From Peribolospora baueri (Eukaryota), in NCBI GenBank assembly GCA_029717555.1, contig JAMDHS010000034.1:62001-126000 (forward strand): a stretch of 64,000 nucleotides of DNA, read 5' to 3'. Below the pieces are notes generated by a model. The model was not told the DNA's origin. It saw only the letters and a list, made by a program, of their open reading frames with translations, and did no database searches. Made by a program: the position numbers and the translations under genes. Below are positions 2,925 to 46,353 of this stretch, piece after piece; within the stretch, counting starts at the first letter, position 1, and every line of letters starts with the position of its first letter.

Positions 2925-3732
2925 TGATGTGATGTGATGTGGGGAGGAGATGGAGATTCCGTGGAAGGAGTGTTTTCGAACTCGTCGTCGGCTTGTTTCC
3001 TTCGTTCACCTTTGACTTTTTTTCTGTCTCTCTCGCTTGGTCCCTTCTTGGTTTGGGTTGTAGTGCTTTTTTTCCCCAACGTAGACATGCTCCCTCTTGG
3101 CCGTATCATAGCCTATGCCGGCTGGGGGTAACGCCGGTCTCCTAATGTCGGTTATACGAAGCCCTCATCAGAGTTATAAGGGAAGACGTGCGATGAGGCA
3201 GGGTTAAGACAAGCCAACCAAGTGAAAGTCATCAACGACAGAGGCTAGTCATTTTCGCTCAGACAACCTTGTCAGCCGGCCTTGAGTGATTTGACAAGTC
3301 CGAAACCTCAGCGGACGTTGCCTGAAAGGCCCTCTCGAGATCTGGTTGCTGTACTGCTGGAAAAAAAGACAGAGAGAAACAGAGGGAATGAACTCGGCGA
3401 AACACCGTGGGTTGTCACAAAAGATCTGCTTGCTTTTGAGGGATGCCTTATATCCGGCCCGGCACCTCACTTTGGGCGGCGGCCTATGTGGCTTCTGCGT
3501 CATCTGCCGTCATTCAGATCAGCTGCATCTGGTCGATGCAAGGACAAATTAGAGGGCGGCTTTTGAGCAATTCTGATCTGTTATACGAAGGACAGTTTTG
3601 ATGGCCAGAAGGTTGACGACATTGGGACAGTTGCGGCCTGCGGATCAAATGTTGTGATGTGATCACGATGCTGTCGGTATAGGATGAGGACGTGGATCAC
3701 GTTTGCCTAGGATGCAGTGAACATGGAAGACG

Positions 3733-3879
3733 TCAACGCCGGATCACTTGGTTCTCGCATCGATGAACAACGCAGCGAAATGCGATAATATAGATTGCAG
3801 AATTCAGTGAATTATCGAATTTTTTGAACGCAACTTGCCGCCCCTCGGCATTCCGGGGGATATGCTATCCGAGTGTGTC
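3733..3879 (+). pseudogene. Degenerate 5.8S rRNA gene copy
   Basis: Recognisable 5.8S blocks GGATCACTTGGTTCTCGCATCGATGAACAACGCAGCGAAATGCGATAA, TTGCAGAATTCAGTGAAT and TTTGAACGCA, with substitutions and indels at normally invariant positions. Confidence 0.9.
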
Positions 3880-6759: not shown

Positions 6760-8281
6760 TCACCATCCGCCGCCGAGCGCGACCGAGGTGGCGACGACAG
6801 CGCCCGCTAGAGCGGCGACGATGCTCACGACGCCGCGCCCACCGCCGATGACGGCGACGGAGCGACCGGCAGAGGCGGCCTTGGTCATGAGGCCGCCGTT
6901 GGAGCTGCCCGAATCGAGTGCGTGCTGGTCGGACGGCAAGGGGCTTGCGCCAGGCGCCGGGGCAAAGGTGGAGTTTGCACACGACCAGCCTCCTCCGCTC
7001 GGCGGCGAAGAAGCGGAGGAGGACGTGGAGTTGGCCAAGGAGGGAGCGCGGGAACCTAGGATGACAGGCAAGGCGGCAGGATAGGTTTTGCTGATGACGA
7101 GGGAGGTGTCGACGGCGTAGGAGGCGTAGAGGGAGAGCAGCTGTGAGGCGCACGAGCTGCAGGTCGACACCGTGTTAGGGGCAAGATCCAAGCCCGAGAG
7201 CAGGTAGTCTGAACGGTAGAGGGCAAGCGTCAGCGCACATGCCCGCCATACGAACAGAGCTCGAGAAAACAAAGGAGAACGAAAATGACGTACAGAGTGA
7301 CAACAAGCTAGGATCTTCGGCAGCAGCTTCGACGAAGCAATAATCGCCCGTGTCCTTGTCGGTCAAGCACCCAGCCCTCCTACCGAGACCCCAACCACGT
7401 AGGCCCTGAACGGCGCTCTGGACGATGGCGTTGCCCTGCGAGAGGTCCGGACCGCAGGCGTCCTTGTCTGCCAAGCGGGTGGCGAGGCTACCCATGACGG
7501 CGGGACAGTTGGAAGTGGAAGGGTCGGTAGAGGCGCCGCAGAGGGTGTCCAGGGCAGCAGTCAAGTCAGCGTACGGTTTTCCGCTCCCGGTCAGATTCGT
7601 CACCGCCGCGTTGGGATCACCGGGAGTAGAACCGGGTGGCTGTTCGAGGGCGAAGAAGCCGTTGGAGGCGGTGACGAGGAGGGAGAAGGCGCCGCACTGG
7701 ACGAAAGTGTCGTTGCGGAGAAGGTTATTGGTCATGAAAGAGGAGCAGCTGTTGCTCATATTGACGCCTAATGTCGTGTCGAAGGGTTTGGGGAGGGAGG
7801 AAGGTGCGACGGAAGGCACGGAGGAGGGCGCGGGGAGGGAGTAAGACGTGGTGGCCTTGGCCAATGTCGTCGCAGTGGCGGAAGAAGAGGCACTGGAGAT
7901 GGCTGTGGCTGTGGTTGTGGCCGTCGAGGCCACCGTGTCGATTTGCGCGGCGAGCACGACGCCGTCGCCGCCCTTGATCCCCAGCTCTTTCTCCCAGGCC
8001 AGGAACGGCGGCAACGGCCTTGGCGGCGCTCCCGTACCATCTCGCCTGTCCGGACCTGGCTCCCTGTGCGCGGCGCGGAGGTGATGCGAGTGGGGGCGGG
8101 GAGGAAGCGAAAGCGAGCCGGACAGCATCGTAGGATCGGTTGCGGCCACGGAAGCGGGGGCGGTGACGAGGGCGGTGAGGACGAGGAGAGAAACGAGAGA
8201 GGGCGGCCGTCGCTCGCCGCCGACTCGAGCCGTAGAGGCTGCCCCTTTCCGATAGCGGCGCAGAGGAGCGTCGGCCATCAT
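6760..8281 (-). CDS. Uncharacterised Cys-rich fungal surface protein (S/T-rich stalk, C-terminal hydrophobic GPI-like tail; tentatively DUF7729-like)
   Basis: ATG at 8281/8278; hydrophobic LVSLLVLTALVTAPASVAA; Ser/Thr run; Cys-rich domain (LPKPFDTTLG...CSSFM...CGAFSLLV...CGPDL...AGCLTD...YCFVEA); intron 7293-7209; tail VVSIVAALAGAVVATSVALGGGW*. Confidence 0.75.
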
Positions 8282-8610
8282 CAGACTGATGGAAGGCGGG
8301 GCGGCCGACAGTGATCAGGCGCGGTGGCCGGTGTCAAAAGCCAGGCACAGGGCGCGGTGGCTGGACGAGGTGGAACGGTGGGCTGGCAACGATGTGCTTG
8401 TGCTGGAGTGCCTGGGACGAATGGCAGTTGGGGTGGGGTGTAAGGGGGAAGACAGACGAGCAGATAGGACGGCACTGGCTGGAGGATGTGGACGGACAAT
8501 ATGGGCGAAAGAGGACTTCTAGCGAGGCGAAGGGAAGGGCGGAGGGAACGTGGTTTAGCAAGGAGCGTGAAGCGGCGGACCGAGCGTGGGCGAGGGTTAG
8601 GGAAGGTGAG

Positions 8611-19715: not shown

Positions 19716-22592
19716 TCAGTTGGCCTTGCTGCGAGGCCGAGCGGCGCCAGTGGCCTTGCTCCTAGCCTTGGAGCTCTTGGCCTTGGCCTTGGCCTTACCA
19801 GCCACCTTCCTGCCGCTCACGCTGGTGAGCCTTCCGCCGAGGTCGTCCTCCGACGATCCATCCTCCACACTGCTGCCATCGTCGTCATCGTCGTCCCTAC
19901 CACCGCCACCTCCAGCTTTGCCTTTGCCCTTCCCGGGGAATCGGCGGACCCTCCGCTTAACTTCGTCCCCCCTCTTCCGCTTGCTGCTTCCGCTAGGGGC
20001 GACGGCAGCGCAGATTTCCTCCGCGTCCACGGGAGTGTAGTGCTTCCAGCGCAAGCCAGTCTCGTCCATCTCGTCGTACGATTCGCCATCGCTGAAAGCA
20101 GGAGAGGCCGGGGCCGTGGGAGCGGCCCGGGTGGGGGTCGAGTTGAAGTTGAACGGCTGCGGAGCCTGAGGGCTCGCGCTGCATGCGGTGAAGCCATCGC
20201 TGAAGCTGAAGGGCGTCGAAGGGACAAACCCAAGGTACTCGCCCCCACCCTGTTGACCAGCGTAAGACGCGGGAGAAAAAGGCGTTGCTGCGAAGGTGGG
20301 GTGGCTGTAGCTCGAAGGAGTCATGGCCTTCACCGGCGGCTTGGGCCTAGTGGGGGTGCTGCTGCGCATGTTGGGCGTCGAGCGGGCCGGGTTGATCCTA
20401 CTGGGTGACACCTGACGCATGTGCGCGCCCATCCCCGCGTCAAATCCGCCTGGCGTGTTCACGCTCTCGCACGACGAGCTGGTGGAGAGGGTCGACCCGC
20501 CGGCAGACGAGGGGTAGAAGAAAGGCATGTTGTGCGGGAAGGCAGGCGGATAGTGAACGAGTGGACTGACGGGGACGCTGACGCTGTGCATCATGTTGGC
20601 CATGCTGGCATTGGCCGTTCCCATCATGTGGTTTTGCTGGCGAAAGGGCACGGTGCCAAACTGCATCTGCTGCGCGTGCGTGTGCACCTGGGCTTGACGA
20701 GTGGCGAGCGCGTGCGCTTGCGAGTAGGACATGGGACCTGACGAGGACATCAAATGTCCTCGCTGCATCTGCATCGGCGCGGTCTGAGGCTGCCCATCGG
20801 GAGCGACGGTGACGGGCACCGAGACGAAACCGAGTCCGCTGGGATGAGGGACAACTTGATGGGGAATGAAGTGACGCTGAACAGGGCCAGGAGCCGACAC
20901 GGGTGCAGGATCTGGGAAGGCCGGCCCAAGCGTCGTAGCTGCGTCCGAGTGTTGGGCCTGCGAGCTGGACTGTTGGGCCTGGGTGGATGCGTTTGCACCC
21001 TGCGAGTGCGACTGGCTGAAGGACTGGCACTGCTGCTGGAGCTTCCTCAGCCCTTCCATCCGCTCGTTGGCGGCCTTGGTGTCGATCGGACGCGGGGCTT
21101 CGACACGACGCTTGGCGGCGATAGTGGCAGCCCCGGCCTTCGGACTGGAAGTGGTCGGGACTTGCGTCGCTGCCTCCGTCGTTGGACCGGCGCTGGCCTT
21201 GGCGGCAGTTTGCGGAGAAGCACTTGGCTGGGCGGTAGTCTGAGGAGCAGCGCTAGACTGGCCGGTGATGTGGCCAGGCGCAGTAGACTGAGACGTGTTG
21301 CTGGCCTGAGGATCCTGAGGATCAGCAGGTTTGGACGCAACGCCGGGAACGCGGCAAGGGAGCTGAATCGGAGACACGCGCCAGAGATCCTGCGGCGAGA
21401 TGGTACGCGAAGCGGTGGACCAAAGGGTAGGGTCGGAGGGCGGCTTGCGCAGGCCGGAAGACGAAACGAGCTTGAGCGCATTGGCCAGGCTGCTCTCTGC
21501 CGGGGTAGGCGGGTACTTCCGCGGGCCTTCGGTCTTGGAGGTCAGGCTGGTCACAGACATGGCGTCCATAGGCTTCTGGCTCAAGGAAATCGCGCGAGGC
21601 CTAGCGTTCTCCATGATGGCGCCGTCACTAGCGGCACGAGGGTGGTGGGAGGGCCGGGGGCCGCTGTCGATGTTGCCGTCGGAGACGAAGGAAGCCAGAG
21701 CGTCGGCCAGCGTGGACTGGTAGCCCTCAACAGGACGACTGTCGCCGGGCCCGGCGAGCCCATCCGTCGGTTTCGCCGTGGCGTGCGAGCCGGAAAGGGC
21801 CAAACCGTCAATGCCGCCGGCCAAGGGAACCGACGAGAAATGGTCCGTCAGAGGAGAGACATCCTTGAGGCCATCCAACGAGGAGAAGGGCGTGTCTGGA
21901 GACTTTGCGAATGCCGGAGTGAGGATGCCGTCTCCCTCGGGGCCGAGCTCGGAAGGATGGAAGTTGAATGCGCCGTCGAACGAGTCCATCGCGTCGAAGT
22001 TGGACGTCTCGCTGATCAGACGGTTGACCCAGTCCATGCCGTGAAAGCTGCCGACGGTGTTGTCGATGTCAGTGTTCCAATCGGATGACAAGTCGGCAGG
22101 AGTGCGGAGACCATCGGTGAGAGGCGTGTGAAGACCTCCAATGATGTCCCGAGGGGCACAGTCGACTCCTCGAGTCAAGTCAACGATGGGACCACGGACG
22201 TCAGGGCGTGCGGAACGAAGGCGGGGAGGGGGGGTCACGGTCCTGTTCGTCTTGTCCGACTTGGGCGAGTCGTCGCGGTCCGAGGAGTTACTCGAGTTGG
22301 ATCCGGCGACTACGGCGGCCATCGGCTGCAAGTTGTAAATTCCGAGGGCCGATCCGGAGAGGACGCTGGAGGCGGCAATGGTGTCGGGGGTGACTTTGGT
22401 GTTGGTAGGTGAGTGGGACAGCCCGGCCGAGGTCGCAGCCGTTGCCAAGGTGGGATGAGCCTTGGGCTGTGGGAAAGCTACGACGGCCGAGGCCGAAGAG
22501 AGAGACGAAGTTGAGAAGGGGTCAGGGGCAGAAAGGGCGGCGTGCACGGAAGAGAGAGTCAAGTCGGAAGCTTCCCAGTCAAACTCCATCAT
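19716..22592 (-). CDS. Large disordered protein with C-terminal WetA/Esc1-like motif; putative transcription regulator
   Basis: Intronless ~958-aa ORF from ATG 22592, with TATA-like TATTAAATA near 22830. The motif WKHYTPVDAEEICAAVAPSGSSKRKR resembles the WetA core F.NFTP.D..KIL.GVAPSGSSK. S/P/Q-rich body and basic NLS-like tail. Confidence 0.7.
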   Translation of the reverse strand: MMEFDWEASDLTLSSVHAALSAPDPFSTSSLSSASAVVAFPQPKAHPTLATAATSAGLSHSPTNTKVTPDTIAASSVLSGSALGIYNLQPMAAVVAGSNSSNSSDRDDSPKSDKTNRTVTPPPRLRSARPDVRGPIVDLTRGVDCAPRDIIGGLHTPLTDGLRTPADLSSDWNTDIDNTVGSFHGMDWVNRLISETSNFDAMDSFDGAFNFHPSELGPEGDGILTPAFAKSPDTPFSSLDGLKDVSPLTDHFSSVPLAGGIDGLALSGSHATAKPTDGLAGPGDSRPVEGYQSTLADALASFVSDGNIDSGPRPSHHPRAASDGAIMENARPRAISLSQKPMDAMSVTSLTSKTEGPRKYPPTPAESSLANALKLVSSSGLRKPPSDPTLWSTASRTISPQDLWRVSPIQLPCRVPGVASKPADPQDPQASNTSQSTAPGHITGQSSAAPQTTAQPSASPQTAAKASAGPTTEAATQVPTTSSPKAGAATIAAKRRVEAPRPIDTKAANERMEGLRKLQQQCQSFSQSHSQGANASTQAQQSSSQAQHSDAATTLGPAFPDPAPVSAPGPVQRHFIPHQVVPHPSGLGFVSVPVTVAPDGQPQTAPMQMQRGHLMSSSGPMSYSQAHALATRQAQVHTHAQQMQFGTVPFRQQNHMMGTANASMANMMHSVSVPVSPLVHYPPAFPHNMPFFYPSSAGGSTLSTSSSCESVNTPGGFDAGMGAHMRQVSPSRINPARSTPNMRSSTPTRPKPPVKAMTPSSYSHPTFAATPFSPASYAGQQGGGEYLGFVPSTPFSFSDGFTACSASPQAPQPFNFNSTPTRAAPTAPASPAFSDGESYDEMDETGLRWKHYTPVDAEEICAAVAPSGSSKRKRGDEVKRRVRRFPGKGKGKAGGGGGRDDDDDDGSSVEDGSSEDDLGGRLTSVSGRKVAGKAKAKAKSSKARSKATGAARPRSKAN

Positions 22593-23860
22593 TTCGAATG
22601 ATTCGGGGCTTTTGGACTGGGGAAAGGTGACCGAGGTGGGTAGGGAAAGCAAAGAACGAGAGCGTTCTGAGAAAAGAGCAAGTGGCCGGCACGTCTTCCG
22701 CTGGAGATTCCTTGAGCGCTTGGGACGATCCCTGGAGTCGCTGCAGAGGAGATCTACTCTGTGAAAAGCTGCGAAACGACAGAGAAGAATGTGGGAGGAG
22801 AAAAGGAATGTAGAGAAGAACGCGGCGTATTTAATAGTGGGGATCAGCGGATTAAAGGAGAGTCCTCGTATGGCCAGCGTACGAGGAGGAGGATGGGGGT
22901 GTCGCGGATGATGATGGTGGTGGGACGAAGAAGGGAGGGTGGGTGGGTGGGAATGGTGGGATGGGAGACGGTGACATATGAAGTGAGACCCGGGGGCCGC
23001 GCGGGAACCCAGCGCGTTAGTTAGATGTCGTCGGATTCGAGTAGATGTTGTTCGCTTGCATCGAAGATCCGTCGACGACAGCCATCACCCGGCGTTTCGA
23101 AGAGCGTCGACGCTGGCCCTTGGAAGTGCATCCGGCCAATGTGGAGCTGAGCTGGACAAGAGTCGACCATTTCGTCCGGTATCCTGCTCGAAGCCGGTCG
23201 TCGACCAGATTCTGAAACGAGGCCTTGGGTTACTAGCGTTTAGCGTTGTCTTCGCCAAGCGTCCAGCGTCCACTCGGGGACTTGGCAAGACATCAGAAGA
23301 CAAGCGTCAGTATCGCGACATTTCTCCGACCCTCTGTGAGTCGAAGGGCAATTGGCTCGACCGACCGATAGGTAGGCAGATGGCCAGACTATCGACGTTC
23401 CTGACTTGGCGGGGTGATGGTGGTGTCCGATCAACTCCACATCCTGCACGTTGCCGCAGCAAGACGCGTTCTGGCCTTCGTTGGCCCGTGCGCAGGGAGC
23501 AAGCTCGTGCACAAGACCAGTCTCGCCAAGACCGACCGCCGATACAGACGAATGAGAAGAATGTTTGTTTCCGTGGTCTTCGGTGGCTTGAAGGGATAGA
23601 TGTACATTTCCAAGGTCAGGTGAGCAGCTGTACCGCTCGTGCCACCGCCAACGCGTCGTGGTTCGACTTGAAGGCGCGGAGACGTATTTGTCTTCTCCAG
23701 TCGCCCTCGACGAGGCAAACGACTTGGACGGAGCTCGATCCTCGACGATATTACCAATATACGCTTAAATACAAGAGCACAGAGCGCGAGTAAACAATGA
23801 ATACCACTCGCAAACCTGAAACGCACGGAGGCCACGCCGGACGGGATCTGAACGACGTTT

Positions 23861-25757
23861 TCACGTCGACGATAGCCGGTGGTACGCTGGACTGGCGCTC
23901 TCGTACTCGGACGCAAAAACCCGCTTCTGCTCCTTGACGAGGAACCTGGAGAGCGTGAACGAGTTTGGGGAGGGGAGGAACGATGGGGGGAAAAGAAATC
24001 AGCCGCAGCCCGTTTGGCTTGTCCGCACTCGCGATGATGCTGCCGTCGCTCACTTGAGAAATTCGGCAATGTGCTCTTTCAGGATCATGATCGCATCGGC
24101 GTCCAACGTGGTGTGGGCTAACATGCCGGGGAGGTTGACTGACGAGAGTGGATGGGTGTCATCGAAGTGGAATGGAGAGACAGGAGGATGGAAGACAAAA
24201 ATGCCAAGACAAAGCTCAAGTGAGTCGGTCTGACATGCCTACCCAAAGAATACAACAAGGGGTCGTTCCGCGGAGGCGGAGAAGGCCAATCCGACGAACA
24301 AAGGGCTTCTCCGGTATGGAACCACGACTTGACTCGACGCACCGAATAATCGCAAAAGATGCTCAGCACCATATATCTTGCTGGGCTGCATTTCCGCATC
24401 CTCTCCGGCAAACTTCTTCCTCGCGTCCACATACTGCGCCCGTTCAAATCGGTAAAGGAGGTTGGCACCAAGGGACTTGTCGAAGTAGAGTTGGAGACCT
24501 GAAAGGAACTCTGTTAGGAGGGCCGAGGACGAGGCTTTGCTGGATGGATGAAGTATCGGGCACAGCGGTTGGAGGGCAGACGAAAGTGGAATGGGATAAG
24601 AGTCAGGGTCAAGTTCGTCCTGAAGATGTGGGCTTGCTCCTTCAAGATATGTGAGCAGGCATGGTCGAAGCCGACCTCTCACCTGGACTTGGCATCACCA
24701 CCCTTCTTCTCCCTCGTGTAGTGCTCTTTGTACTGAGCCAAGACGTCCTGCACGTTCGGCGTCCGTGGAAGTGACACGAGCTGTCGTCGGCAGATAGGAC
24801 GAGACCAGGTCAAAAGAGACAAGTCAGCCGTGACAAAAAAGGGCGATCCTTGCAGCATTACCAACGCATTCAAAACGATTGATCGTCTGGCCTCCCCCAA
24901 GCGCTCACCTGACCATTTTTAGTAACGTATTCCCAGTCGTCGACGAGCTGAACCTTGAGCGGATCTGGAATCGCAATCCTGATCTCGGGGCGTTTGATGT
25001 ACTCGTCCTCCTGCGGGCGAAGAAACGGTATTGTGTGAGGTGTGCGACGCCGCAACGTCTCTCTCCACATCCCAAGCCACACTCGTCCCCACTCACCCCC
25101 TCGACGTCGCCCCTGCTCCTCTTCGTCCCTCTGCCCTCCTTCTTCCCTCTTCCGCGTCCCTCCCCACCCGCGCCCGACGGCGTGCCCTCCTCCTTAACAG
25201 CCTTGCCTTGCGAGGGCTTCTCGGCCGCCCTCTGTGCGTCGGCCAACGTCTTTTGCCGCGCTATATTCTCCTCCGTCAGCTTGAGGACACGCGTTTCGGG
25301 AACCCATTCGTCCCACCTGAGTGCGGTGCGGGGGGCGGGGCGGAGGGAATTTATACGACGCAAGGAGCGGCGCCGTGAAAGGCGTAGAAGGACAAAAAAG
25401 GAGGGGAGGGCAGATGTGACACGTAAAAGTGAGTGGACATAGCGCACGGTTGGAGATGGTCGAGCAAAGGCAAACGAACGCACGTCTGCTTCCAGCCTTG
25501 ATAGTGCACGAAGTAGTGCGGTCCATTTAGGCCTTCTTCGTTTTCCCAATGCTCGGCCTTGAGCACCTGTGGCGGAAAGAGTGGACCGGCGTGAGAGAAG
25601 GGGGACATCTGATCCATGACTGTCCGACATCTGGCCTGCCGACGCGCGGCGGCGGCAAGGCATCTCCGACCGGGCGGCTCACCTTGGCCTGGTAGATGAG
25701 CGGGCCATGCCAGCAGAGCACCTTCTCCTGAGGCTGGAAGAGCAGCTGAGGCGGCAT
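23861..25757 (-). CDS. EAF3: Chromo-barrel plus MRG domain protein Eaf3/MRG15, multi-exon
   Basis: [90 protein letters not shown]; stop at 23861-23863. Confidence 0.96.
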
Positions 25758-26012
25758 GGGCGATGAGGAGCGAGGGAGCGCGCAAGCCGTATCGGATGTG
25801 GTCCGTCTCTCTGATCGCGGTGGGCGTTAAGAGACGAAGAAGCGCGCCGCGTTTAATTTGATCGCGCGATCGATCGGCGCGGGCAAAACGACGCTCCACG
25901 CGGCGGGCGGGGACATTACGCCGTGTCTCGCCAAGGGGGTGCACGGTCACTAGCGTCGACGTTCGTAGCTCGAGTGCTGTGTCCGTGGCAGTCCAGGTCT
26001 AGTTGACAATAG

Positions 26013-26019
26013 TATATAA
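26013..26019 (+). promoter_or_regulatory. TATA box of the DJ-1/SUKH gene
   Basis: TATATAA about 75 nt upstream of ATG 26091, in the short divergent spacer shared with EAF3. Confidence 0.6.
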
Positions 26020-26090
26020 GTAGGTCTCACGAGCTGGGAGGAACGAGCGAAGTCGTCTTCTCCTCCTCCAGTCCGAACCCGGCACGCACC

Positions 26091-29000
26091 ATGGACACCG
26101 GCAGCACCAACACCATTCATTGTCTCGTCACGCCGTGAGTGAACAGTTCGTATAGAGTGAAAAATTCGTCTAGAGGCTGCCCCGGCTTCTTCATGCAGAG
26201 CGCAAGAGGCAAATATTTCTCTGCGTCTGATCCCATCGTCCCACCCTACCTAACGCTTGTCCATCCCCCTCTCGGTCCAACTCGCCGCAACTAGCGATGG
26301 CTTCGGGCCCGACCACGTCTTCATTACCGCTCTCCGATCGGTCGGCTTCCAGATCAAATGGCTCGGCTTTGACGCGGTGGAGGAGGGTGACGTGGGATCT
26401 CCTTTGAGTCCAGAGAGGGCCGCCGGGAAGGACTCTGCAGGCGTTGGAGACGAGGCCAGTGCCGTGGTACAAGAGAACAGGACGTGAGCTTCCGGGACGC
26501 TACCTCTCTGAAAGTCACGAAACCATCGACGCCTTGACATGGGCTCCATTGCGTTTCTCCGTGGATGTGGTCACCGTCAACCCAGGATCAATGTGCTCCT
26601 CCTCCCACCTTCCCTCCACCTGCTCTATCGCTCCGAAAACACCGACCTGTTAGCGCGGCTCGTGGACCGCGCTCACTTCGTTATCGCAATCGCTGAGAGC
26701 ACGTTAGCGCTGGCTAGGACGAAGAGGGTCGACGGGAAGAGAGTGGTCATAGGTCCCGTTGCGGAAACTATCGAAAAGCGTGAGTCCACAGCAGGTTGGC
26801 GGAAGGCGAGGTCCGCGCTACGTGTCCGGGCAGACATAGCTGACCGCCGTCGACGGGGAACGATGGCGCGCCTTCCGCAAGTTGAAATGGTCGCAGATGT
26901 GAAAAAGATCCCTCACTTTAAAGGAGATGAGATACAGAGAGACGGTGAGCATGTTCTGCACGGCGGCCGGCGGCACACGTTCTCAGCGCTGCTTTCCATG
27001 ATTGCGTTCCCAGGCAATCTCATAACCATCTCCGCCCTGCGGAGCGAATCTTCAACAGTCATTGGTGCGATGGCTGAGTACCTGCGGAGGGAGCTTGTGG
27101 AGGTCGGGTTGGACGCTGAAAGCGAGGAGGAGAGGGTGAGGTGGCAGAGGGACGAGAGGACGCATGTGCTTCATGCTCTCGTCTTCGAGTGAGCAGACCG
27201 ACTCTCTCCCATACGACGGCACGACGCCTTCAAGAGCTAGCTTCTTATATTTCTGATTCCCTTCCTCCTTCTGGCCACCTGCTTGTCAGCGACTGTCGGC
27301 TCCCATTGGAAAGCCTCAGCATCCTGCCCTTCCTCGGTCCTCGGTATTCGATCCGAACCGCCCTCGCGCAACGAGGGGGTCCTCAAACAAGCACCTCTTT
27401 GGAATACCGTGACACAAAGTTCGTCAACCGGCTCTTCGAAGGACAGACTCCTCAGGAATCCCGACCTGATGGAGGGTTACTCCTCGGACGTGCACCGCCG
27501 AGACGGGAGGGCTCGTCGGACGAGGAAACGCTGCGGGCAGATATGTCCATGTACGAGCTCCTTCAGGATACAGGGTGAGCAGGACTACCAAACCAACCTC
27601 TTCGATTCGCGCGGCACAGGGGTCCTGATTGCAGAACTCGACGCTCATCAGCCTTGTTTCCCTCCCTTCCCCTTGCGCAGCCTTGAGACTCTCCTGCTTC
27701 CCGGAGGACCTGGAGTGGAGGCTTTATTGAAAGAGTACGAAATGGTCGGCAGTATCGGCGAACTGGTGAGGGTCTTCGTCTCTTCCTGGCCAATGTTGCA
27801 CTCACCTCATTCCCCGCCCTACCGACGTCTCGTTTGAACCACTGCATCGTCCTACGGGCGTCTTTTCCCTTCGGCGTCCACAGATCGATAAAGCTAAATG
27901 GGTCGTCGCGGAGGACTATGGCGCCGCGTTGGTAGCTGCTACGGGGAAGCTGGACGGAAGAAGGGCGGTGACGAGTCGAGCTTGGGTCGACGTTTTGAGG
28001 CGCAGGTGTGAGTGCTGCCTTGGCTCGCGAAATGTCCTTCCGTGCCCCTCTACGTCGCGTTGCTATCGGCGTCGCTGACATGGGGCTTTGGCTACTTCGA
28101 CGTTGAAAGACCCAAACGTCTATTGGGAGTCGTCTAGAGTATTTGAGAGACGAGGCAAGATCGCTCACGATGGTAAGTCGCCCGGTCTTTGCATCGTGTT
28201 GTACAACGCCGTCCCTCCCTTCTCTCGTCGGCTCCAACCGCATCGTCTCCGTTCCTTTTCGCGGATCTCCACCGGCCGAAAAACAGGCAAATTCATCACG
28301 ACTGATCAGATCGGTCGTCTCGCTCCGGCTACCGACTGTGAGGCTGGTGAACGCGCCGCTTTCTTTATCAGTCGCCTCATAGAGGGCGCGAAGCGAACCA
28401 AGGAACCGATCGTGGAGAAGCCGGTTCCGGATCGAAACGCAAAGGGCCAAAAGGGAAAGGAGGGGAGGGAGGATGGAGAGACTTTTAAGAAACAGTGGGA
28501 GGAAGTTGCAAAGGAGATCTCTACGAACAGGGAAGAAGACGTCTCGGTGCGTGGGGGCCTCCTTTCTTTGTTGTCGCTGACAGAGTGTCTCGACCTTGTG
28601 TATGGCGGGTGCCCTTTGCCGACCTACGTAAGCTCTCCATCGCTTCTGCAGATCGAGCGGGCGACATCCTTCGCGGAAAAGGTGGCCACCAGCGGTCGTA
28701 TGCGCATCGCGAATGGTGAGTGACGGTACGGTGTCTTGGCGTCACGCAGGCTCGATATTGACACGGCTCCCTTCCGCTCGCTCCTCGGCGACGTCATGAT
28801 CCGCCGAATAGATCTGATAACGTCCATAGGCAGGCTCTGCCCCACGTACGACTACGAAGGCTTGCGGCCTGTTTTCGAGTTCCTCTGGTCGCATTGCGGA
28901 AAACGGCCTGCCGACCTGCCGCCCACTTGGCCCGTCCCGACAGCTCAGTGGTTCGATGAGGCGGAGGCGCAAGAGCGGAGGTACACGATGGGGAGCCGCG

Positions 29001-30698
29001 ATGCCGGTTATGTAGCATGGCTAAAGTCGCGACCAGAGCATCTGCTTGGGCCGGGTGGGTTCACTTTTTTTTTTACTCGTCTCCAAACGCGTGTCCTCGT
29101 GACGTGTTGAAGTTTTCCTCTTCGCCCAGAACATATCGCCGATCTGGCCAGGAACCTCCTCAGCGTTCGCTACCTGGAGAAACCCAAGTTATTGAGACGT
29201 GAGGGTGAGTTGAAAATCGAGGCCGACTCTTCGCTCGTAGGACTCCCCCGGCCATTCGTTACAAACGTCTGATTCGATTTCGAACAGAATTCTGGTTGGG
29301 CGGCGGAATGGAGGAGTGGGATGAAGGCGGTGCGCCTGTGATGCCGAGCGAGGATGAGGAGAGGGAGGCGATCGAAGTGTTCAAGCGTGAGTGTGGTGGC
29401 GATCGTCGGCTCCGAGGGAGACGCGACTCATTTTTTGTGTCTCGTCCGTTTCCCTTTTGTACCACCGCTTTCTCTCTCCAAAGGGCTCGTCGAGCGGCGA
29501 GACGAGTTCGAAGATGGCCACGTCGACATTCACCTCTTGTGCACGTGTCTCGACGTCACGGTGAAACGGAACTGGGTAGAGGAGAGGGAGTACCTCGTGA
29601 ACGTGCTCCGCTCCGAGTGTGCGCCGGCCGCGCTCTCCCACCTAAGCGACGAGGAGGACGGCGCGGTGGCGAAGTGGCAGGCCGGGCTGGCTCAGGCGCG
29701 GCATGCGAGCAGACTGCTCGTCGACGGCACTTTTGCCCCGGCCGAGGCGCCTTCGGACGACGATGTGGAGCGAGCGGGACGGGAGATCGCGTCGACGTTG
29801 CGAGTGCGACTGGAACGAGGACCGGTGCGGCGGCGCGTTGGCCTATCGTGGCCCGATCTGTTGCGCGAGCTGGACGAAGCGTATCGGTTCGCTGCCAAGG
29901 CGCGAGCGAAGGCGGAGGCGTATGGCGACGACGGCGACGGCGGGGACGTCGGCAAGCTGGACGAGCGGAGCATCCTCCGAGCGCCCGCGAGCGAAGCGGC
30001 GATCGAGGCGGCGGAGGCGAAGCTTGGAATAGAGCTGGAAGAGACGGTCAAGGAGTTTTACAGGCACTCCAACGGCCTCGACCTCTGGGAGCCTGTCCCT
30101 GACGAGGAGCCCAGCATCTTGCGAGTGGAAGATGTGGAGTGAGTTGGAATGCGAGGCGTGTGTGTGTGTGTGTGTATTCTGGGCGCGACTGGCGAGCTGG
30201 CTGACCGCGACTCGACTTGGACTTGGCAGCTGGTCCGACCACACGGCCCAGTTCGCCAAGCTGGACCTGATACCGACGGTGAATGGCGACGAGCTATCGC
30301 ACATGCCCATCCTCTCTCGGGTGCTGATGATCTCGCCGAGAGGGGATGGGGAGTTGTGGATGATCGAACCGGAATTGGTGGGAGAGGGGGAGGAAGGGAG
30401 GAGGAAGTATTGGGAGGGCGTGAAGGAGAAGGGGGAGGTGGAGGTGGCTTGGAGGCCGAAGGAGGCCAAGGGGGCGAGGTGGCTCTGTCAGAGCGACATG
30501 ACTGGAGAAGGCGGTCCGGTGAGTCTCGTCTCGTCTCGCCGGCCGTTCCCATGGCATCTTTCTTCTGGCTCGCTGGCGCCCGCGTGGACGACGCTGACCA
30601 CGCCTGCCGGTCCATGTCGCCGCCCGCAGCACTGGGAGACTTTCCGAGAGCATCTGGAGGAGAGGGTGGAACAGTACTGGAATCCGATATCGTGGTGA
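26091..30698 (+). CDS. Fusion protein: two DJ-1/PfpI-like domains lacking the catalytic Cys, a helical region and a C-terminal SMI1/KNR4 (SUKH) domain; many exons
   Basis: Spliced in frame by hand. Domain 1: INVLLLPP...FVIAIAESTLALARTKRVDGKR...DGNLIT. Domain 2: LETLLLPGGPGV...WVVAEDYGAALVAATGKLDGRRAVT...YPNVYW...DGKFITT. Then VFEFLWSHCGKRP and the SUKH signature PASEAAIEAAEAKLGIELEETVKEFYRHSNG, ending HWETFREHLEERV...W*. Confidence 0.72.
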
Positions 30699-32501
30699 GC
30701 GGTCGGCGCATGTCTGTCTGTTTCGCTTGCTCACTCGCTCGCTCTCCCGGAAGAAAGGTGGCGGGGCGCGCCCAGTGTTGGTTATTTAAGAAAGGGGGGA
30801 GGAGCGTACTGTCGATTAGATTGATATGGCCCAGGTAATTAAGGGGGTCACTAGCTCCGCTCGTCTCTTTGTTTCTTTGTTTCTTCCCTCGTTCCGGCTT
30901 GACGAAGACGTTTACGAACGCGATCATCTGGCCATGTCTTCGGATGCGGTGTGGTGTGGGTGGGGGGGGGGAAACGGGAGCAGATAGATAGGTGGGGCCG
31001 TCGTGGGGCACGGGCCACGTCTCGATCATGCGCTCGCTCGCTCGCTGTGATTTCTCCGAGAAGGCGAGGGAGGGGGAGGCAACATCAAAGAATCCTGCAA
31101 ACCAAGCATGATTATTATAAGGAGTATCTGGATCACTATTTAATTTTTTTGACATACTATGTAGTAAGTCAAGAAGGAATTAACAATATGAGGCGGTCGT
31201 GCAAGTGCAGGTTCTCGTGCACCCGTACACCGTCTCCGTCTTCCACCTCGGATTGCGCGCCTGGGCTGGGTTAGGCGGTAGTGGGACGACAGACGCGGTG
31301 CTTACCAGAAAAAAAAAGGGATGCTACCCCGGCCGCGTCTTCTTCTTTTTTTTTTCTTCTCCTTCTTCCGTTTCCTCTTCCCTTCGCCGTCGCGCGTCTT
31401 TCGAGCTGGGACGCGACGGCTGTTTGGCTGACACGGCCTGGCCGTCGCATGCATGCGACGCGGCGCCATACTGTGGGATGGTGCGTCTGCGAGGAGGCGG
31501 ATCGATTGGTGCGCGAATGGGAAGGAAGGAGGGACGTCAAGCGGCGCATGTCAGAGCGTGAGGTGACATTCACGTCAGAAGCAGAGAGAGCATGGAAGGC
31601 GAGCGAAGAAGAGGAGAAACGAGGTGGACATGAGCACAACGTCCGCCTGCGCGTCTGTCCGGTCCGTGTCTCGTATGCATGTATGTGTGTATGTGTGTAA
31701 TGTATGTATGTATGTGTGTGTGTATGTATGTTCGTCTCTGGACCGACCCGCCGCACTCGGCGTTGCCCAGCCCTGTCCAGCCTGGCCCAGCCTGGCCCGC
31801 TCGCCTTGCCCGATCGATGGGCGGCACGTCGCGATCGGTCGGCGTCGGCGTTTTCCTGCCTGTCTGTCCGCGCTTGGGCAGACGACGACGACGACGACGA
31901 CGGGAAAGTGAGACAGTCGGGAGGCGTGGATGTGGATTAGGGAGAGACGGAACGGGCGGCCGGACGGACAGACGGAGTGAGAGTGAGTGACACGTCTGCG
32001 GTGCGCCCTTGCGACCCCAAAGGCCAGGGCCAGCGTCGGATGAGGGTCGAGGGGCGCGCCCGCTCTTGGCTGCCCAGCGAGGCGAGCGCTGATTGGCTGC
32101 CGCCGACGCCGCTGCCACGATCGCCCGCTCGCCGGTCGCTCTCAAAACCGACGCTCGCGTCGTCGTCGTCGTTCTTCTTCTTCGCCTTCGCCGTCGTCGT
32201 CGTCGTCGTCCGAGCCATCCTCTCCTCTCCACACCGACGACGATCGCCACCGCCCCCTCCTCCTCCTCCGCCACCGCTTCTCCTCCTCTTTCTCCGCCTC
32301 CGCCTCCACCTCTTCCTCCTCCTTCCTCTCCTTCGCCCCCAAAAGACCGCCCAGACGCGTCCATTTCGGCGCCCAATCGACGCCGGCGCCTCGTCTCCAC
32401 CAACGGTCACCGTATCAGCCGCACCGCGCTTGATCGATCGCTCGAGGAGCGATCCACCTAACCCTTTCTTTTCTCCCTCTTCTTGCCTCCTTCGCTCCGC
32501 C

Positions 32502-34115
32502 ATGGCGCCACACGACGACGACGACCACCACCACCACCACGCCTCGGCACCCTCCCCCCAACGCCCCTCCCTCATGGGTCGCTCCGTCTCCGACCTCGCT
32601 CCCTTCCCCGGCACACGTCCCTCCACCCTCTCCCAGCCCAAGTCCGGCCGCATCGGCCACGCGAGCTCCAACTTAGGATACGGCCACTCGTACGCCGGCC
32701 TGCCCATCCCGCTCACCGCTAGGCTCTTCTTCGACTCGTCCCAATCTCTCGCCGGAAACCTGAGCCCGGGCCCCAGGCCGGCTTCGGACACGAGGCACGT
32801 CGAAGACGTCGCCGTCCACCCCTCGTCCTCGATGGACATGGTGAACGAGGAGGAGGGCGACGAGGAGGACCCGCTTCGCACGCCCACCCCTCGCGACTAC
32901 GCTCGCGACGCAGTCCTGAACCCGAACCCGAAAGGAGCGTTGCCCATGGGACGACTGCCGTCCACCCACCCGGCGACGGGCCCGGGCCCGACGCACAGGC
33001 ATGCCGAAAACGCCCACGCCCGCCAAACCCCTATCTCGCCCTCGGCCGAGGCGGGCACCGCTGGCGACTACTTCTCCTTCAGCGCTCTTCCCTTCCTTCA
33101 TCCCTCCCATCACGGAATCGCTGCCGTCCGTTCCCCCGCAGGCGGCATCGGCGTCCACTTTACCTTCACCAAAATGTCTCCCGGCCTCACCGTCCCCGCT
33201 TCCACCTCGGCCCATCCTTCCGCCGCACCCGTCGATGGGCGCCCCCCGTCGGCCAAACCGCCCCCCTCGTCCTTTCGCCCCGTCGCCCTCCGCTCCTCCT
33301 CGGCGCGCACCTCTACCGATCCCCGCTCCAGCCCGATGATGACGCGCTCCTATTCCAGTCCCGTGCCCACGCAGCGGGAGGTGGAGGAAAGGAAGAGGAG
33401 GGAGAAGGAGGCGCTCAGGGCTTGGAGGGATGAGGTGGCGAGGGCGATCAGGGAGGGCGAAAGAGCAGCGTGCGGTCCGGCCCTCGAGAGGTCTTGCTCC
33501 TCCAACAACGTCGTCGATGTCTATGAAGAAGAAGAGGAATCGAAGGAGGGCGTCGGAAGCCGGAGCGTCTCGCCGTCGCCTAGCACCAACCCCGGTCTGA
33601 CGTCGTCGTCGTCGTCCTCCCTCTCCGCCTCGTCCACCTCGCTCGATGACCTATCCTCCTCCGCCTCCCTCCCCTCGCTCCTGCCAATGCACCTGGCTGA
33701 TTCGTCCCTCGATCCCACCTGCTACGCCAGCGCACGCTTCTTCGGCGATCCGGACGGCGACGCGGACTCGGAGTCCTTCTCGGCGCCCGTGCAGGCTCCC
33801 GCGAGCCTCCCGGTCGTCGACCGCGCGCCTCAGCTCGACGTGACGATGCACTACCACCAGCTCCTGCCCCTCTCGTCGGGCATGAGCACCACCAAAAGCT
33901 TCCATCCTCCGCTTTCCCACGGCGCCGAGGTGGAACACTGGATGGCAAGGAGCGCGACCGTCGTCGGAGACGGCCGCCCTCACGACCATCCCCCGGCTCC
34001 TCATCCCGTCCAGCGGGCGGAAGAAGTGCTCGAGATGGAACACCATCACGTGTGGATCCATCCTGATCACTTGGAGCCCGTCGCCTCCGGTCCCGGTCCG
34101 GACGACGAGGATTGA
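32502..34115 (+). CDS. Hypothetical intrinsically disordered protein (~537 aa)
   Basis: ATG in good context (GCCATGG) after a pyrimidine-rich leader; intronless; His run, Ser/Pro-rich, charged helix EVEERKRREKEALRAWRDEV. No family recognised. Confidence 0.65.
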   Translation: MAPHDDDDHHHHHASAPSPQRPSLMGRSVSDLAPFPGTRPSTLSQPKSGRIGHASSNLGYGHSYAGLPIPLTARLFFDSSQSLAGNLSPGPRPASDTRHVEDVAVHPSSSMDMVNEEEGDEEDPLRTPTPRDYARDAVLNPNPKGALPMGRLPSTHPATGPGPTHRHAENAHARQTPISPSAEAGTAGDYFSFSALPFLHPSHHGIAAVRSPAGGIGVHFTFTKMSPGLTVPASTSAHPSAAPVDGRPPSAKPPPSSFRPVALRSSSARTSTDPRSSPMMTRSYSSPVPTQREVEERKRREKEALRAWRDEVARAIREGERAACGPALERSCSSNNVVDVYEEEEESKEGVGSRSVSPSPSTNPGLTSSSSSSLSASSTSLDDLSSSASLPSLLPMHLADSSLDPTCYASARFFGDPDGDADSESFSAPVQAPASLPVVDRAPQLDVTMHYHQLLPLSSGMSTTKSFHPPLSHGAEVEHWMARSATVVGDGRPHDHPPAPHPVQRAEEVLEMEHHHVWIHPDHLEPVASGPGPDDED

Positions 34116-34675
34116 TCGCTTGCCATGTCTTCGCTTTCTCGCAACTCGCATCATCGTCCCGTGTCTATCCGTCTATGCATCTTCGCCATCCATCCTGCTC
34201 CACCCCGGTCGGCCCGACGTTTACGCATGTCGTTCCGCACGGATATCTGGACCGACTTCAAGAAAGTACTCGTATATTTTTTTTTTTTTTTTTTTTTACT
34301 TTTTTCAACACCCCTTATCCGCTCACGTGCGCCCATACACGTCTGCTTGCTCTTGGACTCGCACCCCGAAGCCGCGGTCACAATGAGACCTCTTCCTATA
34401 CATGTATACGTTCTAGCCCGCCTTCGCCGGCTGTCCTCGTGTTTCTTTTAGCCCTGTATCCGTATCCGTTTCTGTTTACTTTCATTCTCTCCCCCATCCC
34501 TCCTTCCGTCCTTCACTATCGCATTCCCCAACCCTCCCAACGTCGAGGGACCGTTCACACTGGTGTCGACGCCCGGCCTCCCACACGGCCATCTCCGTTG
34601 CAAGCAAGCGTTCATGACCGATGTTCTGTGCCTCGCTTCCCCCGTGCCGCTTCTTTTCCGGCCGCTTCGCGCTGG

Positions 34676-34705
34676 CTTGGCTTGGCTTGGCTTGGCTTGG
34701 CTTGG
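34676..34705. repeat. (CTTGG)6 microsatellite
   Basis: Perfect pentamer array. Confidence 0.95.
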
Positions 34706-36760
34706 CAGGCTGGCCGTCGTATTGCCGTATCGCGCCGTCGCGGCGCCGCCGTATCGCCGCCGCGCACGCATTCGTTTCGTTCCTTCCTCGTTCCTTCGTT
34801 GCTGCCTTGTCTGTTCGTCCCCTCCGCCATCCGCCTACACCTCGCCGACGTGTACACGCACATGGTCCGCTACTACGCTCTGCGTGCATACGTATCTATG
34901 TGTGTATGTGTATGTGTGCGTGTGTGTCTTCACGTCTGTCCTATCCGTCGTCAGTGTCTCGGGACATGGGGACTTCAAGCGGCTTTGATGGGGGAAGGAG
35001 AGGGACGGATGGGCGGACGGGCGGCTTCAAAAAGCTTGTCCTGCCTTGTTCTTTTTTTCTGTTCTCTTCTGTTCGTGTTCACCCGAATCACGACTCGACT
35101 CGACTCGACGGGGGAGGAGGACGGAAGGGAGGGCGACCCGGCTCTTCCCGTCGTCGTTATTCCTTTCTCAGACCGACGACAAGAAGAAGGGTCTCCTCGC
35201 CTCATCTCCCACCGCCCGCTCACACGACACACACGACACGGGGAAGATTGGCCGAGGCGAGCGAGGTACAGACATACGTAGCTAACTGTGCGGACACCAC
35301 AAACTCCAGCCCAGACAGGAAAAGGACGTCGGACAAGCCGATGGGTAGCACCCACCCACCCACCCACCCACCCTCCCTCCCTCCCTCCCTCTATCTATCC
35401 ATCCATCCATGAGAACCCGGTGTCATCATCGCTGGACCCTCGCCGGCTGAGCAAGACACCAGGAATACGATACACATGTATGCGTCAAGGCGGGGGTCAT
35501 GCGCTCGAAGGAAGGAAGAAGGGGTTCATGTACCCGCCGGCATCAGCATCGGGGCGCAAGCATGGATGTTTCTTTTGTTTACGCCGACGGGCGTCGGGCG
35601 GCGTCCGTCGACGTCGGTCGTCGGCGCGCAGCGGAGGTGGAGCGAGGGCGAGACATGGGCGTGCTGGGCTAATCAACGAATGAATGGTGGATGAAGCGGA
35701 ATGGAGTGGAGTGGAGATGGAAGGTCCCACGGTCCTTCGTTCATTTCCATCGATCTACGGACGGACGGGCTACGACTGTTCGCTGTTCACCGTACGCCGT
35801 GCCGTCGTCGCCTTGGTCGCCGGAGATGGGAGCAACGGCCCGCGGGACCAACAACCGAACGAACTATTCAACCGGCCGGCGTTTGTCTCCTTCCTTCCTT
35901 GTTCCTTGGCACCGACCCGAGAACACGGACGGACGGAGCGGCTCAAGACGTCATCAGTCAGCTCGGCTGGGCCGCAGTCGGGTCGGGGCCGCAGCAGTCG
36001 GCCCAGGCCCCGTCTTAGCCTACAGATAGGCGCTTTCTCTGGCCGCGCACTGGACGATGGATGGCACGGAGGACGGGTGGAGAGCGCAGGACGAGGAGGC
36101 ACATGGTTCGTGAGCGAGGGGAGTTGGGTGAGAAGGGAGTCCGTCGAGGGGTCGACTAGGCTTAGTCACATTCGTCGACGCGGCCTGAAAGCTTATCGTA
36201 TTCGCCCACCCCAACGTCGCCATCGAGGGGGCGCGGAGGTGAACTGGTGGGGTGTGAAAGGAGGGACGGACGGATGTGTTCGCGTCGAGAGACAGACGGA
36301 CAGATAGACACCGCCGGCCCGACTAGGCCGCACACGAGTGACACGGAGTGGACGGAAGGGAAAGGGCCGCTGAACGGAGCCTTCTGATCGTACGTACATA
36401 CGAGGGCCTAGGGCGGAGGCTACGTACATTGCTCACAGGATGTGTCGCCGTGGATGGATGGAGACGGTCAAGCCGAGCGTGCGGTGCGGGTCGAGTTCGC
36501 GGAGACGAGACGGGACGGGAACGGAAGCGAAATTGCGCGCTTTCATTTCCGCCGCCCGCCCGGCCGCCCGGGTTGTCGCAGATGGATATGGGACCGTCCC
36601 ATCCAGGGAGTCGTGCTACTACAGTCGAGTCGAGGCGGTAGATGATCTCGATATCATCTCGACTTGTCTCGGTTCTTTCTATCTCTCTCGTAGCCGAGCC
36701 GGACAAGCGGCGGGCGGACGCACGAGAGCGAGGCGGGATCGAACGGACTTGCTTCGTTTG

Positions 36761-44038: not shown

Positions 44039-46353
44039 ATGGCCCTCCTCATGAACCGCCTCTTCGCCCGAGCCGACACAGTCCAAGGCGACCCCGAAAC
44101 CCTTGCCTCCCTCCCTGCCTTGAGTGCCGCCGAGGCGGGCCAAGCCGCCGCTCCCTCTAGTGTTGCCATGGATGAGGGACGGTCGCGATCTCCCGTACCG
44201 GCTTTGTCCTCGCCGCCCGCCACTCCCGGCGACGGAGGTCATGCGGAGAGCAGTCGCGGCAGAGGCGGCGGAGGCAACACGCGAGGGCAGAACGCCCGAC
44301 GTCGCAAGGACATCGACTCCTCCACGTTGTTTGGGCCTCCGGTCGTGGGCACGGGCGTAGGGAACAGGAAGGGTTTCAGAGGCACTACCGGTGCGAGCGC
44401 CTCCCTTTGGGGGAGGTACTTGGACTTCGCCGGTTCGAGGAACGCCGTAGTTAGAAACGAAGGGCTCGGCGTAGCCGCTGGTGACGACGGTCGAGGAGAG
44501 GAGGACAAGGCGGAGACAAATGCGCCTCTGGAGAAGCAGATGACGGAGAGAGAGAAGGAGGAGTTGGCGAATGGCGTCGACGTTGAGACGATCAGGAGAT
44601 GGGTGGAGAGGAGTGGACAGGTGGGCCCAAGCGACGTTCTCTAACCAGACGGTATTGGGCAGTTCCTTTTGACCTCGTTTCCTGACTCTCTGGCTGTGCT
44701 CTTCTCTCTTGGCTACATCTCCAGCACCCCGCCGCCCTATCGACGACGCTACAATCGCTTGTCAACCTCAAACGCAATACTGTCCGTCTCGCGCCCCTCC
44801 CGTCCACCACGCCATCCTCATCCCCTGCGCCGTTAGACTCCTCTGTCTTGTCGCCCACTCACTCATTTGTTTTCACGCTCGACTCTGCCGCTCCTCGTAC
44901 CCGCATCCGCCTCATCGCTCGCCATTCAGCTACCACGTGTCGCGCCAAAGTTGGCGCTGGCGCACGGGGCTGGCACGAGCTTGGAGAAATCATCTCCGAG
45001 AGTGCCATCTCCAAGAGGTGTTTTGGAAGGGAGACGAGTGTGAAGGTGCAATTGCCTCCACCTGTGAAAGGAAAGAAGAAGGTGGAGAGTAGCGACCCGA
45101 TCTTGACGGTGGATGGCGGTAACGGAGGGACCAACGTGGAGAGGGACGGTGCCGAGCTGGACGCGGAGCCGGAGCCGGAAGACGAGAGGGAGTTTACGTC
45201 GCCAGTCCCCGCTCCAGGCTTGGAGGACGAGGTCGTCCCACTCGGTGATATTTCTTCTCCATACGATAACGCTTCGCCTTCGACTACTCCGGCGCCAGCA
45301 CGAAACGGTGAAACGGCCGCCGGTGCTACGGCAGAAACAAGCTTGAAGGGGAAAGAGAAGGAAAAAGACGCACCGGTGCCGGAGACATGTAAGCTTGGTA
45401 TCTTGGTTGAGGCGTTGGACGCAGACGGTGAGCCAAAGTTTTGTCTTCATCCTCGCCACATGGAATCATTCTTCTCGGTCAGGAGCCGTTCCGGACTGAC
45501 GATTACGATTTCCTCTCCGACCTTCTCAGGCGAACCTCTACCTTCCGACATGGCCAACTCGCAAACGACCTTCCTCCGCGTCACCGGGACGCCTGTCGCC
45601 TCTGCATTGTCCGACGACACTCCTGTCTCCGCCTTGGAAGAGCCACAACGACGCACCTGGCTGATGCAAGTGGAAGGACAAGAGGCGCAGATTGGTCCTC
45701 ATCGGTTCCAGCTGCAGGAGCTCTACGCGCTCTCCTCGCGTCCGCCGGTTGTTATTCCCTCTGGGCAACCTTCTGCAGTCGGAGAAGATGACGAGCGCGA
45801 GCACGAGCCCGCTGAGGGAGAGGATGACGTAGATGGTAACGGCCACCATGACGAGGCTGATCCCTCCTTCCTCGGAGGCGTCGGAGGAACGGGCTCTGGC
45901 GGCACCGAATGCCTCATTTGCCTCAGCTCGCCGCCGACCACCGTTCTCCTCCCTTGCACTCACGGCCTCTGTCTCGAGTGTGCCGTGCAGTTGCGGGAGA
46001 GCGTGAAGAGGATAAGGGAGACGGAGAGAAGGAGGGGCAGGGCGCCCAGGAAGAAGTATGTCTGTCCTGTTTGCAGAAGGCGTGAGTGTCCCCCCCCCCT
46101 ACTAGTTCTCCTTGTCGTCTTCGTGTCTTTGAAGCTATTAAGGAAAATAGGTCCAGGGGCAGAGGGCAGGGCGGAAGGAGGGCTAGTGCTGACTGTTTCT
46201 TTCTCCATCTCCATCCTATTCGTCCCCACAGCTTACCAGTCCATGCTGCACATTGCTCGAGCGACAGAAAAGGAAGAGGCCAGAGACGTGCTCCTGCGTC
46301 GAGATGTGTTTCAGTCCTCCGCTACTGTTCATGCAGCTCAGGCAGCCGAGTAG
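44039..46353 (+). CDS. RING (C3HC4) E3 ubiquitin ligase, MGRN1/RNF157/LOG2-like, multi-exon
   Basis: TTLQSLVNLKRNTVRL, NSQTTFLRV, QIGPHRFQLQELYALS, and RING ECLICLSSPPTTVLLPCTHGLCLECAVQL...CPVCRR. Confidence 0.82.

Follow-up and report, generated by a model that had tools for sequence, protein, structure and literature searches.

Eukaryotic proteins with SUKH domains, such as yeast Smi1/Knr4, FBXO3, and the fungal F-box-SUKH-4 proteins, are probably protein-binding adaptors, and passages of PMC3113570 describe SUKH as a general protein-binding scaffold that was reused as an adaptor in eukaryotes. In the literature we searched, the partners in eukaryotic SUKH fusions are F-box or immunoglobulin-like domains, and fungal SUKH proteins beyond Smi1/Knr4 are almost unstudied. 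Here, we describe a gene in a 64,000-nucleotide (nt) stretch of Peribolospora baueri (contig JAMDHS010000034.1, positions 62,001 to 126,000 of the forward strand, hereafter the window) in which the predicted N-terminal partner differs from an F-box, being what appears to be a dead enzyme. The gene would encode two DJ-1/PfpI-like domains, an all-helical region, and a SUKH-1 (SMI1/KNR4) domain in a single protein.

Its DJ-1/PfpI part also has described counterparts. Passages of PMC3160306 present Arabidopsis AtDJ1C as an essential protein with tandem DJ-1 domains that lack the conserved Cys and presumably form a pseudo-dimer, a precedent for the window protein; AtDJ1C differs in belonging to another DJ-1 branch, in being a plastid protein, and in having no SUKH domain. 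Pseudomonas fluorescens isocyanide hydratase (InhA/ICH, PDB 3NON) and the ThiJ-family structure 3MGK were the best matches by sequence (E = 1.5e-5) and by modeled fold (Z 13.9 and 14.9). Domain 2 of the window protein differs from InhA in that it lacks Cys101 and Thr102, contains two insertions, and continues into a fused C-terminal part of 550 amino acids (aa).

Calocera cornea KZT56444.1 (CALCODRAFT_555897, a hypothetical protein; P0007 in our set), Calocera viscosa KZO95087.1, and a further sequence, P0009, share the order DJ-1 (no elbow Cys), helical region, and SUKH, although the jelly fungus C. cornea has one annotated DJ-1 domain and the window protein two. Lophium KAF2502178.1, Kalmusia KAJ4305326.1, P0003, and P0005 are alike in the last helices and the SUKH domain (63.9 bits to their profile), but these fungal proteins have no DJ-1 domain, and the first half of their helical region is weakly alike at best.

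The initial annotation of this locus suggested that the architecture had not been described. We found no description of a DJ-1/PfpI and SUKH fusion in the literature searched, with most subscription papers outside its scope, and the terms “DJ-1” and “PfpI” are absent from the main text of PMC3113570 and from the part of PMC3482391 covered, two papers whose supplements with architecture lists may bear on the fusion. The architecture is not unique, since it already exists in NCBI and UniRef as a hypothetical protein. The fusion is thus a combination of known parts that is real, rare, and unexplained. A conserved Cys-less DJ-1-SUKH fusion represents both a new architecture and a new lineage of probable DJ-1 pseudo-enzymes with named residues to mutate, and it offers a way to ask whether fungal SUKH domains act as regulated adaptors or defend the fungus from other microbes.

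One gene spanning both families

We read the splice model from the sequence and from homology. It bears out the initial proposal that GT-AG exons can be joined in frame from ATG 26091 to TGA 30698: 16 GT-AG introns of 69-160 nt each lie between these positions, and the predicted spliced frame has zero internal stops. The features of the gene are as follows, with coordinates in the window.

26091..30698, + strand: fusion gene, 17 exons, 991 aa, collinear with P0007, P0009, and P0002
Exons 1-6, + strand: 26091-26134, 26295-26483, 26586-26779, 26882-26944, 27014-27188, 27290-27574
Exons 7-12, + strand: 27681-27765, 27884-28007, 28110-28172, 28287-28546, 28652-28715, 28812-29054
Exons 13-17, + strand: 29130-29204, 29288-29386, 29484-30138, 30230-30518, 30630-30698
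26013..26019, + strand: TATA-like box TATATAA, 78 nt 5′ of ATG 26091, putative promoter of the fusion gene
26109..27108, + strand: DJ-1/PfpI-like domain 1, ~aa 7-195, strongly diverged, without the PGG motif
26692..26694, + strand: Ala114 codon, at the catalytic-Cys place of domain 1 (nucleophile elbow) by alignment
27160..28390, + strand: DJ-1/PfpI-like domain 2, ~aa 213-442, isocyanide-hydratase-like branch
27911..27916, + strand: Glu355 and Asp356, the latter at the catalytic-Cys place of domain 2 by alignment
28304..28318, + strand: Asp414 and Gly417-Arg418, aligned to an active-site loop of isocyanide hydratase (positions 150-152)
28490..29890, + strand: all-helical middle region, ~aa 476-790, no Pfam family, helical in the P0007 model
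29969..30698, + strand: SUKH-1 (SMI1/KNR4) domain, ~aa 817-991, aligning to P0009 and P0002 through the C-terminus

Thirteen of the 16 introns have GTGAG donors, while the whole gene span contains 16 GTGAG words among 270 GT sites. For every one of exons 6-16, one or more relatives could be aligned with an identity of 17-52%, and the alignment of exon 17 was weak (4 of 16). The source genome is fungal, probably basidiomycete, and intron-rich (22.7 Mb in 668 contigs), and the searches made in it yielded no second copy, so the gene is read as single-copy. The 991-aa protein has no hydrophobic segment (maximum KD19 value 1.28), and we therefore read it as cytoplasmic.

The join of domain 2 to the SUKH domain is well supported by comparison with relatives. 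Searching with the C. viscosa protein P0002 returned three proteins, including C. cornea KZT56444.1. This protein of 597 aa matches both DJ-1_PfpI (E = 2e-7, above the cut-off) and SMI1_KNR4 (E = 3.1e-6), and it is collinear in one piece with aa 216-853 of the window protein (183/642 identical, 29%; E = 5e-66). P0009 is a single 640-aa frame on a 2299-nt JGI/IMG contig, running from the middle of the DJ-1 domain to the end of SUKH. Compared with P0002, it has one 6-aa insertion, no deletion of at least 5 aa, and no intron-sized insertion. Because the window gene has ten introns over the equivalent span, the P0009 contig is probably an assembled transcript; its uninterrupted frame makes its DJ-1-SUKH join independent of splice prediction. 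Among themselves, the Dacrymycete-type sequences are 56-62% alike, against 29% for the window protein, and the fusion therefore bridges a long evolutionary distance. Word-based protein searches with exon 15 and P0002 found no relative among longer proteins, which is weak evidence, and two metagenome scans gave 245 and 435 pattern matches, zero of them confirmed.

Two adjacent genes, one DJ-1-like and one helical plus SUKH, could have been merged by the gene model alone. Helical plus SUKH proteins without DJ-1 do exist (where scores are listed for P0003-P0006, they fall below 0 bits with either DJ-1 profile), and C. viscosa KZO95087.1 is annotated without a DJ-1 domain. The start of KZO95087.1, however, is a Met inside the last DJ-1 strand, and the protein scores 19.5 bits against the family DJ-1 profile; this placement of the start suggests a shortened annotation. 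P0007, P0009, and exon 10, which holds both the DJ-1 tail and the beginning of the helical part, all cross the join, and no Met for a separate SUKH gene start occurs at aa 338-511 of the window protein. The initial annotation had preferred one gene, noting that the junction is stop-free even with introns kept, and both points stand: the frame 28079-28723 is open, and retention of intron 9 or 10 gives no stop. With KZT56444.1 collinear across the junction and P0009 in one frame, the two-gene reading is already largely refuted and now barely credible. The fused gene is very probably real. The public Calocera models seem to be truncated oppositely, KZO95087.1 starting in the DJ-1 tail and KZT56444.1 stopping in SUKH.

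The relatives lend no support to the join of domain 1 to domain 2, which falls within exon 5. Domain 1 could instead be a separate or dispensable 222-aa gene or isoform, with the DJ-1 plus SUKH protein beginning at an inner Met. Retention of intron 5 would bring a stop at codon 223 and thus a 222-aa product, an in-frame Met183 is present, and the C. cornea annotation shows a single DJ-1 domain. Against this, exon 5 contains, with no stop, both the tail of domain 1 and the initial strand of domain 2; intron 5 has a GTGAG donor and the same position and phase as intron 1; and a scan of 25801-31300 for TATA- and AATAAA-like words found none beyond the box at 26013, leaving no second TATA-like word for such a gene. 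We regard a separate domain 1 as very improbable.

Two DJ-1/PfpI-like domains without the catalytic cysteine

The tandem DJ-1-like domains proposed initially hold up for domain 2, while domain 1 proved very divergent. Pfam DJ-1_PfpI matched none of the unspliced window pieces in two scans (0/10 and 0/9), and exon 8 alone gave three matches in the PDB, all of the ThiJ/PfpI family and weak (E = 0.49-2). For a bacterial DJ-1/PfpI profile, we fetched 80 loci of the isocyanide-hydratase-like branch and used 79 whole proteins. Spliced domain 2 scored 40.5 bits against it (best of 1000 shuffles, 3.3), and domain 1 scored 7.8 bits, with 1 of 1000 shuffles above it. Against a family profile built from domain 2 and the two related sequences, domain 1 reached 19.7 bits (best of 1000 shuffles, 7.0). 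The domains are 25% identical to each other, and the four introns of domain 1 match introns 5, 6, 8, and 9 of domain 2 in phase and in column (three exact, one off by one). Based on the family-profile score and these common introns, we take the two domains to be homologous. Of the limits first given for domain 2 (~27160-28520), the start was retained and the end moved to near 28390.

Domain 1 looks maintained, judging from its coding-like composition (GC content of 0.41 at second and 0.69 at third codon positions) and its intact frame. Two insertions are common to domain 2 and Calocera and missing from domain 1, which makes a simple recent duplication of domain 2 doubtful; the doubling is possibly older than the split from Calocera. 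The domain pair may therefore be the older state, with Calocera having lost domain 1 or having it unannotated. The apparent loss of the first helix in domain 1 depends on the alignment, and we set it aside.

We also modeled the fold of C. cornea P0007. A first model, with a predicted local distance difference test (pLDDT) score of 40.7, was discarded as useless, and a second (pLDDT 65.6), for which some of the bacterial rows in the DJ-1 alignment were misplaced, was trusted for residues ~70-180 only. The best matches of this model were isocyanide hydratase and 3MGK (E = 8.5e-6; Z 14.9, root-mean-square deviation 3.2, 151 aligned), a result that is not independent since DJ-1 sequences had been aligned to build the model. 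In NCBIfam, P0007 had only a weak match, to FtrA, and nothing above weak was obtained from the NCBIfam and PADLOC searches.

In isocyanide hydratase, the nucleophile is Cys101, whose thiolate is bonded by Ile152, and the Gly150/Ile152 loop lies at the active site (passages of PMC10462001). The initial annotation treated the DJ-1 part as a Cys-dependent stress enzyme or Cys sensor, which no longer fits: the elbow residue is Ala114 in domain 1, Asp356 in domain 2, Gly in P0007, and Ala in P0009, so that Cys occurs in 0/4, whereas 78 of the 79 bacterial relatives retain it. The Thr that follows the elbow Cys (Thr102), the Thr/Asn/Lys of the next motif, and other invariant positions are also gone in the family. 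Asp356 was considered as a nucleophile and rejected, as the residue is not conserved (Asp, Gly, Ala). The candidates for the general acid Asp17 of isocyanide hydratase are Asp16 in domain 1 and Glu229 in domain 2, with a register that varies with the gaps.

Other residues appear in place of those lost. Glu355, His406, Asp414, Gly417, and Arg418 occur in all three family members and in none of the 72 bacterial rows compared (7 of the 79 were dropped for lack of the PGG anchor). Asp414 aligns to position 150 of isocyanide hydratase, in the same loop as Ile152, and from such alignments we infer that Glu355, Asp414, and Arg418 are close in space to the old pocket. This pattern points to a domain 2 pocket that was rebuilt and not just decayed.

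Helical region and SUKH domain

The helical middle region is well conserved with the Calocera-type proteins, and its last part (from ~aa 719) is common to ascomycete-type relatives that have no DJ-1 domain. No convincing fold match was obtained for this region of the P0007 model (best Z 9.2 on 81 residues). Exon 15 matched Pfam SMI1_KNR4 (PF09346) at E = 2.7e-7 and 31.7 bits, above the cut-off of 25.4, which places a SUKH domain where a signature had been noted from the sequence (~29980-30075). Searched against 1.84 billion representatives, this exon retrieved six proteins at E ≤ 0.001, each of which carries SMI1_KNR4; the three with names belong to Calocera viscosa, Lophium, and Kalmusia. In the ESM Atlas, exon 15 led to SMI1_KNR4 clusters, which were under 0.9 and are treated as leads only, and P0009 gave no usable match. 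One Logan sequence of 180 aa (P0001), a fragment covering about the exon 15 stretch with a similar end, was nearest to the window SUKH domain in the tree (support 93/91) and may mark another fungus with the fusion gene.

The suggested link to Knr4/Smi1 cell-wall signaling was not borne out. A better PF09346 match (60.1 bits, model positions 1-116) lies on another contig of the genome, in a long open frame (L005, G000:C639:54627-58052) whose SMI1_KNR4 match is nearly complete and whose tails are disordered, and this layout indicates that L005 is probably the ordinary Smi1/Knr4 orthologue. It matches the SUKH domain of the fusion gene at E = 0.23. In a tree of 13 rows, a small sample with long branches, the window SUKH domain fell in a group with fungal helical plus SUKH proteins and three SUKH proteins of actinobacteria, and L005 lay outside it (support 100/100). 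Given the separate gene and the split in the tree, the fusion gene by sequence is not the orthologue of the cell-wall regulator.

The actinobacterial matches came from 3 of 401 genomes of the phylum to which an Atopobiaceae genome (G001) belongs, and they cover the SUKH part only; no DJ-1 gene was present in their 1.5-kb flanks. We considered a bacterial DJ-1/SUKH operon as the source of the fusion, and none was seen at the four loci checked. A Streptomyces virginiae plasmid (NZ_CP108335.1) carries two SMI1/KNR4 genes within 5 kb, one of which has an N-terminal SUKH domain of the kind that comes nearest to the fungal family.

Proposed mechanism and alternatives

DJ-1-like domains serve as ligand sensors in AraC-type regulators. 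In the mechanism we propose, the window protein would be a stress- or conflict-related adaptor composed of a noncatalytic DJ-1 pair, a helical spacer, and SUKH-1. Its DJ-1 part would be a pseudo-enzyme, with the remodeled pocket of domain 2 (Glu355, Asp414, Arg418) binding a ligand or partner and domain 1 pairing with it structurally to form a pseudo-dimer within one chain, as presumed for tandem DJ-1 proteins of plants. The SUKH cleft, presented by the helical arm, would bind a target protein, and a binding event or the oligomer state at the DJ-1 end would decide whether SUKH holds its client. Our confidence in this mechanism as a whole is about even.

Several observations weigh against it. 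Domain 1 sits on a very long branch in the tree and has neither the residues nor the two insertions that mark domain 2. The family is tiny in the searches made, with three matches for P0002 and six for exon 15, and in the only named orthologue that is complete, one DJ-1 domain is annotated; either the DJ-1 pair is not needed everywhere or it is unannotated in C. cornea. The family-specific residues were drawn from three sequences, two of which are 56% identical to each other, and the window scan revealed no defense or cell-wall gene as a neighbor.

The fusion could alternatively be a fungal polyvalent immunity protein, in which SUKH neutralizes a protein toxin of competing microbes and a small-molecule weapon is bound or decoyed by the dead isocyanide-hydratase-like domain. 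Passages of PMC10462001 describe isocyanide hydratases as a defense against isocyanide natural products, and those of PMC3113570 and PMC3482391 describe SUKH as an antitoxin, also in polyimmunity fusions. The spread of the fusion is patchy, its SUKH domain groups with the fungal helical plus SUKH and actinobacterial proteins and apart from the fungus's own Smi1, and parts of PMC2715888 relate earlier transfers of single SUKH genes from bacteria into yeasts. On the other hand, no toxin-like gene was found among the 16 long frames scanned in the window, the gene is single-copy with no expansion, the three actinobacterial matches are SUKH-only with no DJ-1 gene in the flanks checked, and passages of PMC3113570 hold that the conserved SUKH proteins of eukaryotes have probably given up their part in immunity. 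A role in defense is thus unlikely, if conceivable. We consider it quite unlikely that domain 2 is still an enzyme with a new chemistry through Glu355/Asp414 or the first-loop Cys224. Charged residues are conserved at the old pocket, and the window protein and C. cornea have a Cys at the equal first-loop position; yet the varying elbow residue leaves Asp356 no conserved nucleophile, the shared loop Cys is found in two sequences only, in a column that is mostly Phe in the bacterial family, and the catalytic Asp17 can be aligned in more than one register. An integrated sensor-immunity receptor, in which an ex-detoxifying domain with a rebuilt pocket (Glu355, Asp414, Arg418) serves as a ligand or decoy module in a pseudo-dimer wired by the helical arm to a bacterially derived antitoxin domain, strikes us as distinctly improbable; if true, a chemical sign of microbial attack would switch SUKH binding.

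Neighborhood of the gene and other features

Upstream, an MRG-domain (EAF3/MRG15-like) gene lies on the - strand at ~23800-25757 (MRG E = 5.8e-21, ATG at 25757), and a gap of 333 nt separates it from the divergently oriented fusion gene. No cognate toxin gene adjoins the fusion gene, the neighbors being this MRG gene and two downstream long frames with no Pfam match. Other features of the window are listed below.

19716-23084, - strand: long open frame of 1122 aa, no Pfam match
31941-34115, + strand: long open frame of 724 aa, no Pfam match
34067-35281, + strand: long open frame of 404 aa, no Pfam match
1064-1996, + strand: ordinary fungal frame, GH88 glycosyl hydrolase
7175-8314, - strand: ordinary fungal frame, DUF7729
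44686-46353, + strand: ordinary fungal frame, RING finger
54618-56072, - strand: ordinary fungal frame, C2H2 zinc-finger
3728-3878, + strand: degenerate 5.8S ribosomal RNA (rRNA) copy, Rfam 101 bits, with ribosomal DNA (rDNA)- and internal transcribed spacer 2 (ITS2)-like DNA to ~4730

Two rDNA contigs, C239 and C634, match the 5.8S fragment at 82-83% identity, and another dispersed copy, on contig C139, matches it at 94-98%. By these identities, 3728-~4730 is a duplicated rDNA pseudogene fragment inside a chromosomal contig.

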